A stretch of DNA of 64,000 nucleotides from Clostridia bacterium (GTDB taxonomy: Bacteria > Bacillota > Clostridia > TANB77 > CAG-508), in contig JAAWAM010000022.1 of assembly GCA_022792135.1 (NCBI GenBank), forward strand, positions 68,121 through 132,120, written 5' to 3'. Positions 57,400-64,000 of this stretch are shown in pieces (the first letter of the stretch is position 1; every line of letters starts with the position of its first letter). Under the pieces are notes generated by a model. It saw only the letters and a program-made list of their open reading frames with translations, made no database searches and was not told where the DNA came from. A program made the position numbers and the translations under genes.

Positions 57400-57492
57400 T
57401 ATTCTTGATAATATTTTCTGCAAAATTTCATCTCTTTTCCCAATGTTGTTTTTCCTGCTCGTGCAACTCCAATAATTAAAATATTTTCCATA
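57400..57492 (-). pseudogene. remnant of a P-loop NTPase/kinase gene (30 codons)
   Basis: GGAGGATGTAAATAAT-ATG, then MENILIIGVARAGKTTLGKEMKFCRKYYQE*. It has a Walker A but nothing downstream. Confidence 0.4.
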
Positions 57493-57511
57493 TTATTTAC
57501 ATCCTCCAGTT

Positions 57512-58480
57512 TTACATATACAGATTCATTTCTCTTGAGAAGCTTTTTATTTCTTCCCTATATTTTTCAGATACTATGTTCATATTAAAATATTGATAAA
57601 TTTCAAATAAACACTCATACATATTATCATCAAAATCAATATTTTCTTCGTATATAACATTATTATTGTCGAATATTTTTATCGTTCCATCTTGCAATTT
57701 ATTTAAGTCTTTATCATAAAATAAAAATTCTCCACGAATTGTCATATCATTTTCGCAAACAACTATTATCTCTCTTATTTTTGTGTTAGTGGCAAAATCG
57801 CTTTCATGAATAACATAAACATTCCCTTTTTTAGTAATAATTTTACTATATCCGTGTTTTTCTAATTTTACATTTTCTTTTTCCATTGACTTTTCTTCTT
57901 CTAATAGAAGTTTTGTATCATTAGGGTTATCTAATAAAAACTGTGAAATATATACTTGATGTGGAATATCATGTTCAATATTACGAGTAACTTTTTTATA
58001 CATTCCTCTTCCATCAAAACTTTCTTCTGTTCTGTTTTTAGAAAAATTTGTATATACAATAACTGGTTTTAAATTTTTATCTTTAATTATTTTCTTTATT
58101 CCTTTTGTTATTTCTGAGTACATATAATTATGTACCATAGCAATATTTAAATCATTATTTTTTTCAAAGAAATCTTGATTTACTATAAATGGCTTTTCTA
58201 CCACAATGTTTTTTATTCCTAATTTTTTACTTTGTTCTATAATTTCTAAAAATACACTTTTGGGTGTACAAATATCTACTATTAAATTATCAACAATAAG
58301 AGAATTACTTTCAATTGCATCTCTTATCGTACAATATACCTTATTATTATCAATATTATCATTTTTAATTTTTCCATCAATATCTACAAAATATATATTT
58401 CCTATTTCTTTAAATTTCTTATATGAATAATAGTGTAAAAATCCTGCTTTTCCTGTTCCAACAATAATAATATCTTTCAC
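57512..58480 (-). CDS. Gfo/Idh/MocA-like NAD(P) oxidoreductase
   Basis: 322 aa with an N-terminal Rossmann motif (IIIVGTGKAG), then DICTP and EKP motifs typical of the family. Confidence 0.65.
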   Translation of the reverse strand: MKDIIIVGTGKAGFLHYYSYKKFKEIGNIYFVDIDGKIKNDNIDNNKVYCTIRDAIESNSLIVDNLIVDICTPKSVFLEIIEQSKKLGIKNIVVEKPFIVNQDFFEKNNDLNIAMVHNYMYSEITKGIKKIIKDKNLKPVIVYTNFSKNRTEESFDGRGMYKKVTRNIEHDIPHQVYISQFLLDNPNDTKLLLEEEKSMEKENVKLEKHGYSKIITKKGNVYVIHESDFATNTKIREIIVVCENDMTIRGEFLFYDKDLNKLQDGTIKIFDNNNVIYEENIDFDDNMYECLFEIYQYFNMNIVSEKYREEIKSFSREMNLYM

Positions 58481-58484
58481 TTTT

Positions 58485-59519
58485 TTAATCTCCTTCTATT
58501 TTTAATAATTCTTCTGATATTTCTTCTGCTTTTTCGTATAAATCTCTACAAATTCTAGTTCTATAAAATGCAAATTCCAATTGTTCTTCCTTATTATTAA
58601 CATTATTATAATATTCTTCATAACCAAATGTGCTTCTTGCCAATTGTATTAGATAAACATATGGTAAATATTTAAAATCATATTTATTTAATTTAGTTAT
58701 TTTAGTAAATTCTTTTGTATAATCAACAAGATTTTTTATATTTATTTTACCTTCTCTTGCCTCTTTATCTATGTAACTATATGATCTCGCAATTTCCCAA
58801 ATTATTGGTAATTCCTTCACTTTTATAAAATCTAATACTACTTTAATTTTACCTTTATCATCATAAATAAATTGTAAACTGCTATAATCACCATGAGATG
58901 TTTTATATGTTATTTTACTTATTTCTGAAAAATCTAACCTTTCTCTTAGCTCTTTTAACAAATTCTTTTTAAATGTAATATCTTCTTTTATGATTTGCTC
59001 AAATCTTGTTCCCTTTGCATTTTCAATTATTTTATTATATTTATTGTCTGCCTTTTCAAACTCATTTTTTGAATACCAATCTTCAATTTTAATAGTTTTA
59101 TTTGCTGTATAATTTTCAAGTCCTTTTATTATTTTAGCTAGATACTCGGCTGATTCCATTAGTTGGATATAATCACCTTCATTTTTTTTACATACTTGTC
59201 CTTCTATAAATTCCTGTAATACTACAACTTTTTGTTTAAACACAAAATGACTATTTCCGTCTTTGCATTTAATGTATTGTGGTAAAGGAACATCTGAATG
59301 TTGTTTTAAATATTCTATTGAATTTATCTCATTTAGAACATCTTTTTCTGAATATTTAGACTGGATTTCTTTCATAATATAGTTTTTATTTTTAGAACCA
59401 ATCTTGTATATACTTGCTGTGCCTTTATCTATTACTTCTATTGTTTCTACCTTAATATCGTATCTGTCTAATATTTCTTTTTTTATTTCTTCTTTTGTAA
59501 AAATTGATTTTTCTATCAT
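58485..59519 (-). CDS. aminoglycoside/choline-kinase-like small-molecule phosphotransferase (APH fold)
   Basis: 344 aa with a Brenner-like HGDYSSLQ and a downstream LDF (DFG-like) motif. Confidence 0.65.
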   Translation of the reverse strand: MIEKSIFTKEEIKKEILDRYDIKVETIEVIDKGTASIYKIGSKNKNYIMKEIQSKYSEKDVLNEINSIEYLKQHSDVPLPQYIKCKDGNSHFVFKQKVVVLQEFIEGQVCKKNEGDYIQLMESAEYLAKIIKGLENYTANKTIKIEDWYSKNEFEKADNKYNKIIENAKGTRFEQIIKEDITFKKNLLKELRERLDFSEISKITYKTSHGDYSSLQFIYDDKGKIKVVLDFIKVKELPIIWEIARSYSYIDKEAREGKINIKNLVDYTKEFTKITKLNKYDFKYLPYVYLIQLARSTFGYEEYYNNVNNKEEQLEFAFYRTRICRDLYEKAEEISEELLKIEGD

Positions 59520-61741: not shown

Positions 61742-63183
61742 TATCCTTTTCTAAAATACAAATCATAATATTCCTCTAATATTCCTGATTCATTGATCCA
61801 CTCATCAACAATTTCTAATTCCACACGATTTTGTAAATTGTGTTTTGTATTTACGATTTTATCCGTAACTACTAATTGACTAGCCTTAAATATATCATTA
61901 GATTTGTTAGGAATTGCCTCTGAATCAAATAGATTAACTGATCTTCCATTTCCTAAAACGGTTATATATTTTCCTTTAATTTCGTATTGTGTTCCATATC
62001 TAGGTATTTCTTGATATTTACATCCTTCTTTTTCATATTCTTTAAATATACTTAAATCAGCAGTTGCTCCTGATGTCACAAATGTTCCATTATCCAAATT
62101 TTCTACAACTTCTTTACTTATACTATTGTATCCACTAGCTCCTACTATTAAAAATGGTTTATCATATTCTATTGACTCTTCTAGTGTCCTAAATGTTGTA
62201 AAGCCTTTTTCTGCTGCATCTATACACTTCATCACATCTGGCTCTATAACAATTACTCTTGCACCATATTGTCTATATCTTTCTGCTAATACTTCACCTA
62301 AATCGCCATAACCTAATTGAGTAACAGTCCTTCCTACTAGCTTTTCTCCACCTAACAATTCAATACTTCTTGTAAATATAGTATTTGCTATTTCTTTATA
62401 TGTAATAAATCTCTTTAATTGCGATTTCGCTATATTTAATACAGGATATGATAATTTTTCTACATCTAAATCTTTTATTCTTTTTAATCCTGTTACTGTA
62501 AGTTCAACAAATGCTTCTACATTTTCATAACTATGTAATGTTAATATTCTCGAAACAATTGCTCCATCATCCAAAATAATTATTTTTTTATTTCTTCTAT
62601 GTTCTATAAAATCTTTTACTAGTTTTTTACCATCTTCAATCAATATATCATCTGCTACAGCAGTATTATCTAATATATCTACTTGAAATCCTATTTTTTT
62701 GAATGTTGCTGTTATTTCATTTCTATGTTTTGTACTATCACCTTTATCTATGGCTAAAATATCTTCAGGAGATACTCCCATTCTAACAAATGCTGTTAAT
62801 AATCCTACATTCTCTTCTAAGAAGTGATCTCTCCATATAATTGCAATATCTTTTAAATTTTCTTGTTTTTCTTCTGAATATTTTTTCAATATTGGCATTG
62901 TGTCTATTATTGCTTGAATTTCATTGTCTGTATATGCTTCACATATTTGTTTTATTTTTTCTAATAGCTCTTGATTATTTCCATTATATTTTATTATACA
63001 TTGATTCTGTACGAAGTATGGTATAGAAAAACTTCTTAATCCTAAATTTTTTTCTTCAAATGTTATTATTTCTCCATCTACGATAATTTCCTTTTTACTA
63101 TTTCTTAGTTCAATTTTCCCTTGTTCTACCTTTTCTAAATCTTTTACAAATTTTGTAATTATATCATAATATATGTATTCCAT
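61741..63183 (-). CDS. protein with an S-adenosylhomocysteine-hydrolase-like NAD-binding domain
   Basis: 480 aa. GRTVTQLGYGDLGEVLAERYRQYGARVIVIEPDVMKCIDAAEKGF parallels the AdoHcyase segment GYGDVGKG...GARVIVTEIDPI...A..EG. The N-terminal half is unassigned. Confidence 0.55.
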   Translation of the reverse strand: MEYIYYDIITKFVKDLEKVEQGKIELRNSKKEIIVDGEIITFEEKNLGLRSFSIPYFVQNQCIIKYNGNNQELLEKIKQICEAYTDNEIQAIIDTMPILKKYSEEKQENLKDIAIIWRDHFLEENVGLLTAFVRMGVSPEDILAIDKGDSTKHRNEITATFKKIGFQVDILDNTAVADDILIEDGKKLVKDFIEHRRNKKIIILDDGAIVSRILTLHSYENVEAFVELTVTGLKRIKDLDVEKLSYPVLNIAKSQLKRFITYKEIANTIFTRSIELLGGEKLVGRTVTQLGYGDLGEVLAERYRQYGARVIVIEPDVMKCIDAAEKGFTTFRTLEESIEYDKPFLIVGASGYNSISKEVVENLDNGTFVTSGATADLSIFKEYEKEGCKYQEIPRYGTQYEIKGKYITVLGNGRSVNLFDSEAIPNKSNDIFKASQLVVTDKIVNTKHNLQNRVELEIVDEWINESGILEEYYDLYFRKG

Positions 63184-63197
63184 TTTTACCCTCCATT

Positions 63198-63989
63198 TTA
63201 TTCTACTTCAATTTCTAATTTTTTTATAATTTCATAAAAACTTTTTATTGAATCTATAAATAGTTCTCTTTTTGTTCTTCCACTATTGTTCATTGGCAAA
63301 TGTGTTTCAATAGAAATTTCTCCATTATAATTGTCTTCTTTTAATTTTTTCAAAAATTTTTCTATATCAAAATCTCCCTTTCCTAAACAAGCATAACAAT
63401 TATTTTTTATATCAAAATCTCTTAAATGAATATATTTAATTCTTTGTTTTGCTTTCTCGTAACTATCATAAATATCATATCCTTCAAAAAAAGCATTTTC
63501 TAAATCACATAATACATCGATATTTTTTTCTTTTTCTATAAGTTTTAAACATTCACTTGGACATTTCGCATAAGTTGCTCTTTCATTCTCCATTATCAAT
63601 TTAATTTTTCTTTTACTAGCTTTTTCACATACTATTTTTATATTTTCTTTTATTTCTTCTTCTATCATATTTTCTCCTAGATTAGAAAAAATCCTTAAAT
63701 ACTCATTATTAAATATTTCGCAAATTTCTAAATATATGTCAAATAGCTCAACTTTTCTACTATATGGTATAGGTTTCTTCCCAACTGGGCTATCTATTGT
63801 TAATACTTTAATTTTATTTTTATCTAATATTTCTTTAAACTTATATAATTCTTCTTTTGAAAATTCCCATAAATATTTATCATCAATTTTTCGTATTTCT
63901 ATTTTGTTAATTTTGGCTTCTTTTAAACTTTCAATTTGTTCTTCAATACTTGTACCAATTTCATCACCTACTACAGCTAATCGCATCAT
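63198..63989 (-). CDS. xylose-isomerase-like TIM-barrel protein (sugar phosphate isomerase/epimerase family)
   Basis: 263 aa, with LIMENE, IHLRD and ISIETH spaced as in AP-endonuclease-2/IolE-type TIM barrels. The operon continues beyond the right edge. Confidence 0.65.
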   Translation of the reverse strand: MMRLAVVGDEIGTSIEEQIESLKEAKINKIEIRKIDDKYLWEFSKEELYKFKEILDKNKIKVLTIDSPVGKKPIPYSRKVELFDIYLEICEIFNNEYLRIFSNLGENMIEEEIKENIKIVCEKASKRKIKLIMENERATYAKCPSECLKLIEKEKNIDVLCDLENAFFEGYDIYDSYEKAKQRIKYIHLRDFDIKNNCYACLGKGDFDIEKFLKKLKEDNYNGEISIETHLPMNNSGRTKRELFIDSIKSFYEIIKKLEIEVE

Positions 63990-64000
63990 ATTTCCTCCTA

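Follow-up and report, generated by a model that had tools for sequence, protein, structure and literature searches.

The right-hand end of a 64,000-nt stretch of a Clostridia bacterium genome (contig JAAWAM010000022.1, positions 68,121 to 132,120; the whole stretch is called the window below) carries six adjacent genes on the minus strand, whose products include a protein resembling S-adenosylhomocysteine hydrolase (SAHH) and an oxidoreductase of the Gfo/Idh/MocA family. In this study, we found that these genes are the central part of a conserved low-GC operon of ~15 genes, which is probably biosynthetic and carried on a mobile island, and whose product is most likely a phosphorylated, redox-tailored sugar-nucleoside or sugar-nucleotide. 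The six genes are as follows.

63198..63989, minus strand: TIM-barrel gene, 263 aa, xylose-isomerase-like
61741..63183, minus strand: SAHH-like NAD enzyme gene, 480 aa, of a non-canonical subfamily; the signature gene of the cluster
60278..61741, minus strand: PHP/MDR-like fusion gene, 487 aa, HisJ-type PHP phosphoesterase joined to an MDR-like NAD(P) Rossmann domain
59521..60288, minus strand: HprK2 gene, 255 aa, short HprK-like P-loop protein
58485..59519, minus strand: APH2 gene, 344 aa, APH/CotS-fold small-molecule kinase
57512..58480, minus strand: Gfo/Idh/MocA-fold NAD oxidoreductase gene (Gfo), 322 aa

The initial annotation, made from the letters of the window alone, had described six co-directional, close-packed genes in an AT-rich accessory locus that runs off the right edge of the window, and had proposed a fold or domain for each product. 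All of this is borne out. The open reading frames (ORFs) lie on the minus strand at these positions, with spacings, from the TIM-barrel to the Gfo gene, of 14 nt, a 1-nt overlap, an 11-nt overlap, 1 nt and 4 nt, and the domain labels are upheld by Pfam, NCBIfam and Foldseek searches with AlphaFold2 (AF2) models. A Logan contig (L001), 100% identical to window positions 56817-64000 (7184 bp), reaches 4.86 kb past the right edge and carries five further co-directional upstream genes, for a 195-aa protein, a NUDIX hydrolase, a second APH (APH1), a second PHP (PHP1) and a second HprK-like protein. The six genes have 24.2% G+C versus 30.7% for window positions 1-55000, where the minimum over 6.5-kb segments is 29.0% (mean 30.65%, sd 1.1%), and the accessory character of the locus is supported as well. 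The cluster also has ~24% G+C (23.5-24.6%) in L001 and in the related loci L004, L006, L010, L013, L017, L025 and L028, with flanks of 23-28%, which is consistent with a common origin or a common compositional constraint. None of the six window proteins (0/6) reaches an equivalog-level model, and public records label the whole cluster hypothetical; catalytic residues are retained in all cluster enzymes. At gathering scores, Rfam searches of the window found neither a riboswitch nor any other RNA, and at E <= 0.1 their sole match in the extended loci L001, L006 and L013 was the tmRNA gene in L013.

The SAHH-like protein matches Pfam AdoHcyase_NAD (4.6e-12), and whole-protein searches against SAHH give E values of 1e-18 to 1e-26. 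On the NCBIfam adenosylhomocysteinase models it reaches 3e-26 at best, at ~90 bits against cut-offs of 275-512; for canonical AhcY in particular it scores 90.3 and 92.2 bits against 497.6 for TIGR00936 and 275 for NF004005. Its AF2 model (pLDDT 85) has the two-domain SAHH fold with NAD-binding domain, and the Foldseek top 50 are SAH hydrolases throughout (~400 aligned columns, 19-24% identity, TM-score 0.6-0.7); in addition, it has an extra N-terminal beta domain of ~70 aa. Comparison with human SAHH, with positions checked by index, shows that H55, D131, K186 and N346 are retained and invariant, whereas E156 is replaced by L, H301 by T, M351 by E and H353 by I, D190/N191 are replaced as well (D190 by T or a gap), and the C-terminal NAD-binding tail (K426/Y430, human numbering) is absent. 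In SAHH, H55, D131 and K186 drive the oxidation-elimination-addition chemistry, and E156, D190/N191, H301, M351 and H353 contact the ribose and adenine. Canonical SAHH function is ruled out by the sub-cut-off scores together with the replaced substrate-binding residues, and since H55, D131 and K186 are retained, the enzyme is predicted to oxidize its substrate with the aid of NAD and then to catalyse an elimination or addition beta to the carbonyl. The family is small: a search of 1.84 billion representatives of 50%-identity clusters gave 110 members at E <= 1e-30, and several of these are ~900-aa fusions. Other long gene calls were seen in metagenomes, in which the SAHH-like protein is fused to an upstream class II aldolase domain (P0034, 714 aa) or to a TIM-barrel protein (P0029, 748 aa), or has a comparable ~270-aa N-terminal extension (P0241, 746 aa). 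These may be real fusions or artefacts of merged gene calling; judging from the version with the aldolase, the TIM barrel may be replaceable. A further match, at 290-1381 of an 8.8-kb unannotated 'Bacteriophage sp.' contig from human faeces (MT836783.1), is 23% identical over 77% of the length of the SAHH-like protein and probably represents an ordinary SAHH-type gene.

The Gfo gene lies four genes downstream of the SAHH-like gene in the same operon. The window protein has no Pfam match above cut-off (PF01408 is below cut-off for it and is recorded for several orthologues). Its AF2 model (pLDDT 94), with an N-terminal Rossmann domain, a C-terminal beta-sheet domain and the EKP motif of the family, resembles YvaA, scyllo-inositol dehydrogenase, GnnA, KijD10 and GenD2 in Foldseek searches (TM-score 0.65-0.76). 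E95-K96-P97 and H174 are invariant, and 153 relatives (E <= 0.001) were found in 5.8 billion proteins.

In tblastn searches of plasmid records with the SAHH-like protein, matches were found only on giant plasmids of Streptomyces and Kitasatospora. The lone Kitasatospora match is weak (23%); the Streptomyces homologues are 33-36% identical over 82-96% of the protein, compared with ~20-24% identity for canonical SAHH. A syntenic 7-gene cassette, made up of the protein families of the window core, recurs on four of the plasmids, which come from S. clavuligerus ATCC 27064 (pSCL4/pCLA1) and three NBC strains. Its genes run in the order HprK-like, short HprK-like, MDR-like, TIM barrel ('AP endonuclease'), APH, SAHH-like-Gfo, HprK-like, with only the MDR-like half of the window's fusion protein present. 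The cassettes span the following positions of these giant linear plasmids.

L031: 8892-17686
L032: 8817-16465
L033: 7122-15833
L035: 6879-15726

A divergent XRE regulator is annotated upstream in L031 and L035. In 3/4 cassettes the SAHH-like and Gfo/Idh/MocA proteins are fused into one protein of 907 aa, a fusion not seen in S. clavuligerus; this is Rosetta-stone evidence for joint action of the two proteins. RefSeq annotates the 907-aa protein merely as 'Gfo/Idh/MocA family oxidoreductase'. The SAHH-like proteins of Clostridia and Streptomyces share one residue signature, with H55, D131, K186 and N346 kept and with E156 replaced by L or V, H301 by T and H353 by I.

A further homologue, of 541 aa, is found in S. 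cadmiisoli (L034) together with two Gfo genes, one of which shares 40% identity with the Gfo domain of the fused cassette protein, and with genes for a radical SAM protein, a beta-lactamase-type serine hydrolase, an AMP-binding enzyme and an ABC transporter. The herbicidin cluster contains the 558-aa 'SAH hydrolase' HcdB/Her4/AnmB, the oxidoreductases HcdC and HcdD, the radical SAM protein HcdE and the beta-lactamase HcdH (PMC6794829), and the gene content of L034 mirrors HcdB, HcdC, HcdD, HcdE and HcdH. The window protein is closer to the L034 protein (36% identity over 406 aa), which was assigned by gene content, than to human SAHH (24% over 237 aa), and its pattern of substitutions is identical. 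A Gfo partner accompanies the SAHH-like protein each time, in the same operon in the window, fused in Streptomyces and adjacent in L034. The title of Chen et al. (JACS 2022, 144:15653) speaks, for Her4/Her5, of 'an atypical mechanism of C-glycosylation'. The match at the level of the SAHH-like/Gfo subfamily points to nucleoside plus UDP-glucuronate chemistry. Her4/Her5 reportedly couple ADP or ATP with UDP- or TDP-glucuronic acid, and in the open literature we found no paper linking herbicidin to glucuronic acid. In our best reading, the operon would couple a nucleotide with UDP-glucuronate in the manner of Her4/Her5, and novel tailoring by kinases, phosphatases and redox enzymes would follow, a proposal to which we give a probability of roughly 0.45.

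The TIM-barrel protein matches Pfam AP_endonuc_2 (3.6e-22), and its metal ligands E134, D162, H188 and E228 are invariant in 25 orthologues including one from Streptomyces, so it is predicted to be a metal-dependent epimerase, isomerase or dehydratase. Its NCBIfam matches are to IolO (37 bits, cut-off 300), IolE (28 bits, cut-off 290) and L-ribulose-5-P 3-epimerase, all below threshold, and at these scores an equivalog-level assignment to myo-inositol catabolism fails. Nevertheless, such sub-threshold likenesses, together with the Gfo fold, which is nearest to inositol and sugar dehydrogenases, would fit the catabolism or salvage of a cyclitol, rare sugar, uronate or nucleoside, where the kinases would trap the substrate and the Gfo, MDR-like, TIM-barrel and SAHH-like enzymes would rearrange it. 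The APH fold also occurs in sugar kinases, for example MTR kinase; a class II aldolase domain is joined to the SAHH-like protein in the one gene call P0034; and a Bacilli variant of the cluster has a LysR regulator. We consider catabolism quite unlikely, however, since window-type variants contain neither a transporter nor a step into central metabolism, a biosynthetic UDP-glucose 6-dehydrogenase (Ugd) is conserved, several phosphatases stand beside several kinases, giant plasmids of Streptomyces carry the genes, which are also found in a context resembling a biosynthetic gene cluster, and the iol signature genes are absent. The lack of a transporter or of a link to central metabolism in the cluster counts for the biosynthetic reading.

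In the PHP/MDR-like fusion protein (Pfam PHP 5e-12, Glu_dehyd_C 6e-9; HisJ-family NCBIfam matches under cut-off), the PHP metal ligands H8, H10, E83, H113, H141, D203 and H205 and the motif G318xG320xxG323 are invariant. The two halves are separate genes in L015-L018, L022, L026 and L028. APH2 scores 27.2 bits on Pfam APH (PF01636; cut-off 23.2), and its H209-G-D211 and D230-F are invariant, the Streptomyces homologue included; neither APH1 nor APH2 reached a specific NCBIfam equivalog (homoserine kinase, APH(3') or CotS). HprK2 gives weak HPr-kinase matches (E 2e-3 to 2.5e-5) and belongs to a family of 96 members in 5.8 billion proteins, with H90, G105..G110-K111 and D129 invariant. It cannot be called an HPr kinase/phosphorylase, as it scores 23.7 and 23.6 bits against the TIGR00679 cut-off of 240 and has only the P-loop/His/Asp motif in common. 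One HprK-like orthologue weakly matches the phosphonate-monophosphate kinase FomB (E 0.0056). An identity of the HprK-like proteins with ScmC, the SynChlorMet cassette protein, was dismissed because the match is faint.

These kinases raise the alternative that the targets are proteins, with the HprK-like and CotS-like kinases and the PHP phosphatases acting on a ribosomal peptide, a spore-coat protein or other proteins. The HprK-like proteins weakly match ScmC and HprK-related kinases A and B, and APH2 matches the CotS family (6.6e-10). Some PHP enzymes are protein-tyrosine phosphatases. HprK-related kinases are reported to phosphorylate lasso-peptide precursors (PMC8498205), and the literature on ScmC and HprK-like proteins yielded lasso-peptide kinases and kinases of other peptides that are made on ribosomes and modified after translation (RiPPs) only. 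The clusters, however, lack a conserved precursor-peptide gene, a RiPP recognition element, a protease and an exporter; the one small ORF upstream (68-85 aa) is hydrophobic and missing from many variants; and the closest matches of the PHP domains are phosphatases of nucleotides and of histidinol phosphate, most of the genes encoding redox enzymes of the sugar or nucleotide type. These make protein modification extremely improbable.

The co-occurrence of the genes in other genomes, which had been suggested as a check, is strongly borne out: at least 26 species have the cluster in syntenic form, and it is present in Streptomyces too. The scan of one genome per GTDB species gave 26 loci, all in metagenome-assembled genomes (MAGs) of uncultured bacteria. 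The samples were of human, rabbit, goat and rumen origin, and the genomes bear the labels Clostridia, Lachnospiraceae, Erysipelotrichaceae, Bacilli and, in a few cases, Muribaculaceae or Bacteroides; as two specific peptide patterns were used, 26 is a lower bound. Beyond the GTDB species, further metagenome contigs have the identical gene order. Synteny extends over 9-15 genes in one order, down to ~50% identity of the SAHH-like protein. Three variants were distinguished. One, from Bacilli, has a LysR regulator together with a TuaD-type Ugd. The second is reduced, lies beside integrase fragments and contains an unfused PHP along with two NUDIX genes. In the third, also from Bacilli (L026 and L028), the core genes are interleaved with three glycosyltransferase genes of family GT2, one of GT1/4, and genes for an acetyltransferase, an AMP-binding enzyme, alpha/beta hydrolases and a HAD phosphatase. 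In the distant locus L029, on a 3.5-Mb metagenome chromosome and with a 38% identical SAHH-like protein, the SAHH-like, PHP and Gfo genes are found with glycosyltransferase-like genes, of which one is a confirmed GT2, and with two radical SAM genes, of which Pfam confirms one. Ugd adjoins the cluster in almost all variants, and is of two subfamilies, a 388-aa PRK15057 type and a ~440-aa TuaD type. Such non-orthologous replacement at one position indicates that UDP-glucuronate is functionally tied to the pathway.

In L006-type operons, the genes on the 3' side of the Gfo gene encode a 202-aa P-loop protein, a 346-aa SDR protein, a 388-aa Ugd and a histidine phosphatase. In the window, the corresponding region contains the following.

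57358..57491, minus strand: remnant of the 202-aa P-loop gene, nucleoside/nucleotide-kinase-like
56325..57365, minus strand: intact SDR gene, 346 aa, UDP-hexuronate/HexNAc 4-epimerase type
55151..56306, minus strand: ugd pseudogene (UDP-glucose 6-dehydrogenase)

The P-loop remnant aligns to the intact L006 gene at residues 1-18 and 177-202 only, in two frames; the gene is intact in L006-L012. Residues 1-43 (56306-56178) and 48-388 (56176-55154) of Ugd lie in different frames, with four codons lost and a frameshift relative to the intact L006 gene, and the 3' part matches NCBIfam PRK15057 (4.6e-130). The histidine phosphatase gene is absent from the window. The SDR gene and ugd are as low in G+C as the rest of the cluster. 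Although the initial annotation had taken the decayed ugd and the P-loop remnant for the borders of the locus, both genes are intact in the clusters of relatives, so these 'borders' are eroded members of the cluster, which in this genome is partly eroded at its 3' end. The SDR, kept downstream of the cluster in L005-L014, matches Pfam Epimerase (9e-54); its best PDB match is 5u4q (5e-106), followed by the UDP-HexNAc(A)/UDP-GlcA 4-epimerases (WbgU/WbpP, 6zl6, MoeE5).

With Ugd and a UDP-hexuronate 4-epimerase-like SDR as conserved members, the cluster could instead tailor nucleotide sugars for a surface glycan (a capsule, a teichuronic-acid-like polymer or a glycolipid), UDP-glucuronate or UDP-galacturonate being remodelled on UDP and then transferred by glycosyltransferases whose genes lie elsewhere or, in some lineages, within the cluster. 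This is in line with L026/L028, where the core is interleaved with genes for three GT2 enzymes, one GT1/4 enzyme, an AMP-binding enzyme and an acetyltransferase, and with L029, where it is interleaved with radical SAM genes and with glycosyltransferases, at least one of them a confirmed GT2. The interleaving also qualifies an earlier remark that no transporter, glycosyltransferase or aminotransferase is visible, which is correct within the window but not for the glycosyltransferases inside the cluster variants of some relatives. However, the window-type cluster (>15 species) and the Streptomyces cassette are without a glycosyltransferase, flippase, polymerase or initiating transferase, four or five kinases and four phosphohydrolases are atypical of NDP-sugar tailoring, and the SAHH-like subfamily is otherwise tied to a cluster of the nucleoside antibiotic type. 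A surface glycan is therefore an unlikely end point in our opinion, though it overlaps in part with the coupling of a nucleotide to UDP-glucuronate, since the coupled product could later be glycosylated or transferred.

Nucleotide substrates are indicated by the resemblance of PHP1 and by the presence of the NUDIX gene: PHP1 is nearest to 3',5'-nucleoside bisphosphate phosphatase/RNase RNM (5e-47, under cut-off). APH1 scores 42.4 bits on Pfam APH (PF01636; cut-off 23.2), and the upstream HprK-like protein, of 354 aa, is a paralogue of HprK2 (hhalign probability 97.6%). The 195-aa protein has the pattern NExTx[RK]…R…KxK…ExE and matches class IV adenylyl cyclase at E about 0.15; an assignment to the CYTH family is unverified, with 0/9 members matching Pfam CYTH. 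A second paralogue of the 195-aa protein, 35-39% identical, lies ~1.7 kb downstream of the cluster in L008 (17206-17775), L009 (14130-14696) and L010 (20855-21424), where in L010 it is preceded by two small XRE-like helix-turn-helix ORFs. Upstream of the cluster, an XRE-type regulator is found in divergent orientation in the loci of both Clostridia and Streptomyces. Between this regulator and the first operon gene lies a small hydrophobic membrane-type ORF of 68-85 aa (310-546 in L001, 4475-4732 in L006), with 42-99% identity across Clostridium-type loci and missing from many variants; it is too hydrophobic to resemble a RiPP precursor.

Tyrosine-recombinase fragments directly flank the cluster in L017 (4698-5992), and transposase genes in L004 (362-1029 and 4341-4799), where Fic/RhuM genes are also found downstream and CYTH-like, small radical SAM and LysR genes upstream. 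In L013, a Clostridia MAG from goat omasum, ~2.5 kb separate the cluster from a tmRNA (ssrA) gene on its upstream side (2192-2545). Genes for tmRNA are classic insertion points for genomic islands.

A toxic nucleotide analogue directed against phages or competitors would also suit a low-GC island that has integrase fragments, transposases or Fic/RhuM genes beside some loci, tmRNA in L013, XRE regulators, plasmid carriage in Streptomyces and a weak FomB match. In such a system, a nucleoside modified by the SAHH-like and Gfo enzymes would be phosphorylated stepwise to the triphosphate by the APH, HprK-like and P-loop kinases, and the NUDIX, PHP and 195-aa proteins would provide self-protection; puromycin and ADG offer a precedent in a Gfo-type NTP dehydrogenase accompanied by NUDIX and phosphatase (PMC11641026, PMC9239236). 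A search of PADLOC-DB 2.0, however, gave no meaningful match, only one generic NUDIX match (E 8e-15) and otherwise weak P-loop noise at E >= 3e-4. No nuclease, abortive-infection effector or sensor is present, and the sole match in phage records is the 23% identical SAHH-like stretch. We regard defence as very unlikely; moreover, it is largely a sub-case of the Her4/Her5-like pathway, differing in product use only.

The data show the gene content, the synteny, the intact active sites, the subfamily, the fusion and the association with Ugd; we infer the substrates, the C-C coupling, the order of the steps and the product of this Her4/Her5-like pathway. The SAHH-like enzyme would hold NAD tightly and act in partnership with the Gfo/Idh/MocA protein, as in Her4/Her5 (AnmB/AnmC). 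It would first oxidize a ribose hydroxyl of the nucleotide transiently, upon which the 5'-phosphoryl group would be expelled as the leaving group in an oxidation-elimination-Michael addition sequence, and the resulting enone would then be joined by a C-C bond to the uronic acid of UDP-glucuronate. Ugd would supply the UDP-glucuronate, which the adjacent SDR may epimerize to UDP-galacturonate. Judging from folds only, the TIM-barrel enzyme and the MDR-like domain would epimerize, dehydrate or reduce the new sugar, the two APH, the two HprK-like and the 202-aa P-loop kinase would add phosphate, and the two PHP, NUDIX, histidine phosphatase and 195-aa proteins would trim phosphates or nucleotide groups.

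Several points weigh against this pathway. No radical SAM gene was found in the window, in L001 or in the L005-L014 clusters, nor in the Streptomyces 7-gene cassette; among the loci examined such genes occur only in L029, near L004 and in L034. In herbicidin and aureonuclemycin biosynthesis, the radical SAM protein Her6/AnmE is one of the four genes needed for the core (PMC10339500). L034 has been called herbicidin-like by its gene content and not by comparison with a reference Her4/AnmB sequence. The window Gfo profile matches single GC-rich sequences of Streptomyces Gfo domains only weakly (hhalign E 0.004-0.08), so the orthology depends on the common EKP and FSK(N/D)R…GR motifs and on the fusion context. 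Ugd is not adjacent to the Streptomyces cassette, and the genome studied here has a frameshifted ugd and a deleted P-loop gene, so that either UDP-glucuronate is not supplied locally or the locus is decaying. Finally, the HprK-like proteins have their roles purely by inference.

A broader proposal goes further, namely that a previously unrecognized cassette common to gut Clostridia and Bacilli and to Streptomyces plasmids (a Her4-like SAHH homologue, its Gfo partner, TIM-barrel, MDR-like and APH proteins and two or three HprK-like proteins) makes a new high-carbon (nucleoside plus uronate) phosphorylated metabolite, with the HprK-like proteins as phospho- or pyrophospho-kinases of small molecules. 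We put this forward tentatively and consider it rather doubtful as a whole; within it, a small-molecule kinase role would be new for the HprK fold outside a possible parallel in FomB. If it is true, no such pathway would have been described before from bacteria other than actinomycetes, and its product would be a candidate for a bioactive nucleotide analogue made in the gut microbiome. If the Her4/Her5-type coupling is correct, the unusual C-C-forming nucleotide 'C-glycosylation' would extend from a few actinomycete antibiotics to the gut microbiome, a new family of HprK-fold small-molecule kinases would come to light, and the phosphorylated nucleoside metabolite could act on neighbouring microbes, phages or the host. 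Dozens of uncultured species of gut and rumen share the cluster gene for gene, and its 7-gene core is present on plasmids of cultured, tractable Streptomyces, among them S. clavuligerus ATCC 27064; the Streptomyces fusion protein and the conserved Ugd open the way to direct biochemistry.

Among known systems, SAHH (AhcY) and AgmF of angustmycin biosynthesis resemble the SAHH-like protein in their two-domain SAHH fold with NAD domain and in the conserved equivalents of H55, D131 and K186. AgmF is an SAHH-like dehydratase for nucleoside sugar tailoring that binds NAD tightly and keeps the equivalents of Asp188 and His299, which are required for its activity (PMC8599513). In contrast, these two equivalents are absent from the window protein, which is therefore of another kind than AgmF. 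An angustmycin-type pathway was discarded for lack of its defining genes.

The puromycin and ADG pathways (Pur10, Pur7, Pur3 and Pur4) similarly combine a Gfo/RifL-type NAD dehydrogenase acting on a nucleotide ribose with a NUDIX pyrophosphatase and a monophosphatase, and the ADG cluster of P. luminescens is a small low-GC island (PMC11641026, PMC9239236). The likeness is one of pathway logic only, as pur and adg contain no SAHH-like enzyme and no close sequence relationship is detectable. A puromycin-type pathway was also discarded, there being no Pur4-type aminotransferase in any variant examined.

Inositol and aminocyclitol pathways (IolG, IolE/I/O; StrI, StsE) also have a Gfo/Idh/MocA dehydrogenase, a xylose-isomerase-like TIM barrel and APH-fold kinases, and the initial annotation had compared the operon with their logic. 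This comparison is not supported, because the TIM-barrel and Gfo matches are fold-level or sub-threshold, and IolB, IolC, IolD, IolJ and IolA, sugar-phosphate cyclases, aminotransferases and amidinotransferases are absent. With HPr kinase and the RiPP kinases (lasso-peptide kinases and ScmC), the HprK-like proteins share the P-loop core His ... GxSGxGK[ST] ... (D/N)D, but they score 18-38 bits against cut-offs of 125-240, lack any HPr or precursor-peptide context, and form a tiny, cluster-specific family with two or three paralogues per cluster. The operon as inositol catabolism, as a known defence system or as herbicidin biosynthesis itself was rejected in each case.

The earlier statement that the operon matches no pathway is only partly true, since its SAHH-like/Gfo pair belongs to the subfamily of the herbicidin/aureonuclemycin-type pair. 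Both systems have a longer-than-canonical SAHH-like protein and Gfo/Idh/MocA-type oxidoreductases, and a glucuronate-type unit is implied in both, here by the conserved Ugd and in herbicidin by a glucose-derived C6 carboxyl unit. For aureonuclemycin, the four genes anmBCDE alone suffice in heterologous hosts (PMC10339500). The window-type cluster is found in gut Firmicutes, whereas herbicidin is made by actinomycetes, and it is without the radical SAM, methyltransferase and acyltransferase genes of herbicidin, so the product differs from herbicidin and aureonuclemycin and the likeness is limited to the first steps. In addition, it has a TIM barrel, an MDR-like domain, two APH, two HprK-like and two PHP proteins, a NUDIX hydrolase, a P-loop kinase and a histidine phosphatase. 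From its gene content, the locus thus appears to be a Her4/Her5-type module inside an otherwise undescribed kinase- and phosphatase-rich cassette.

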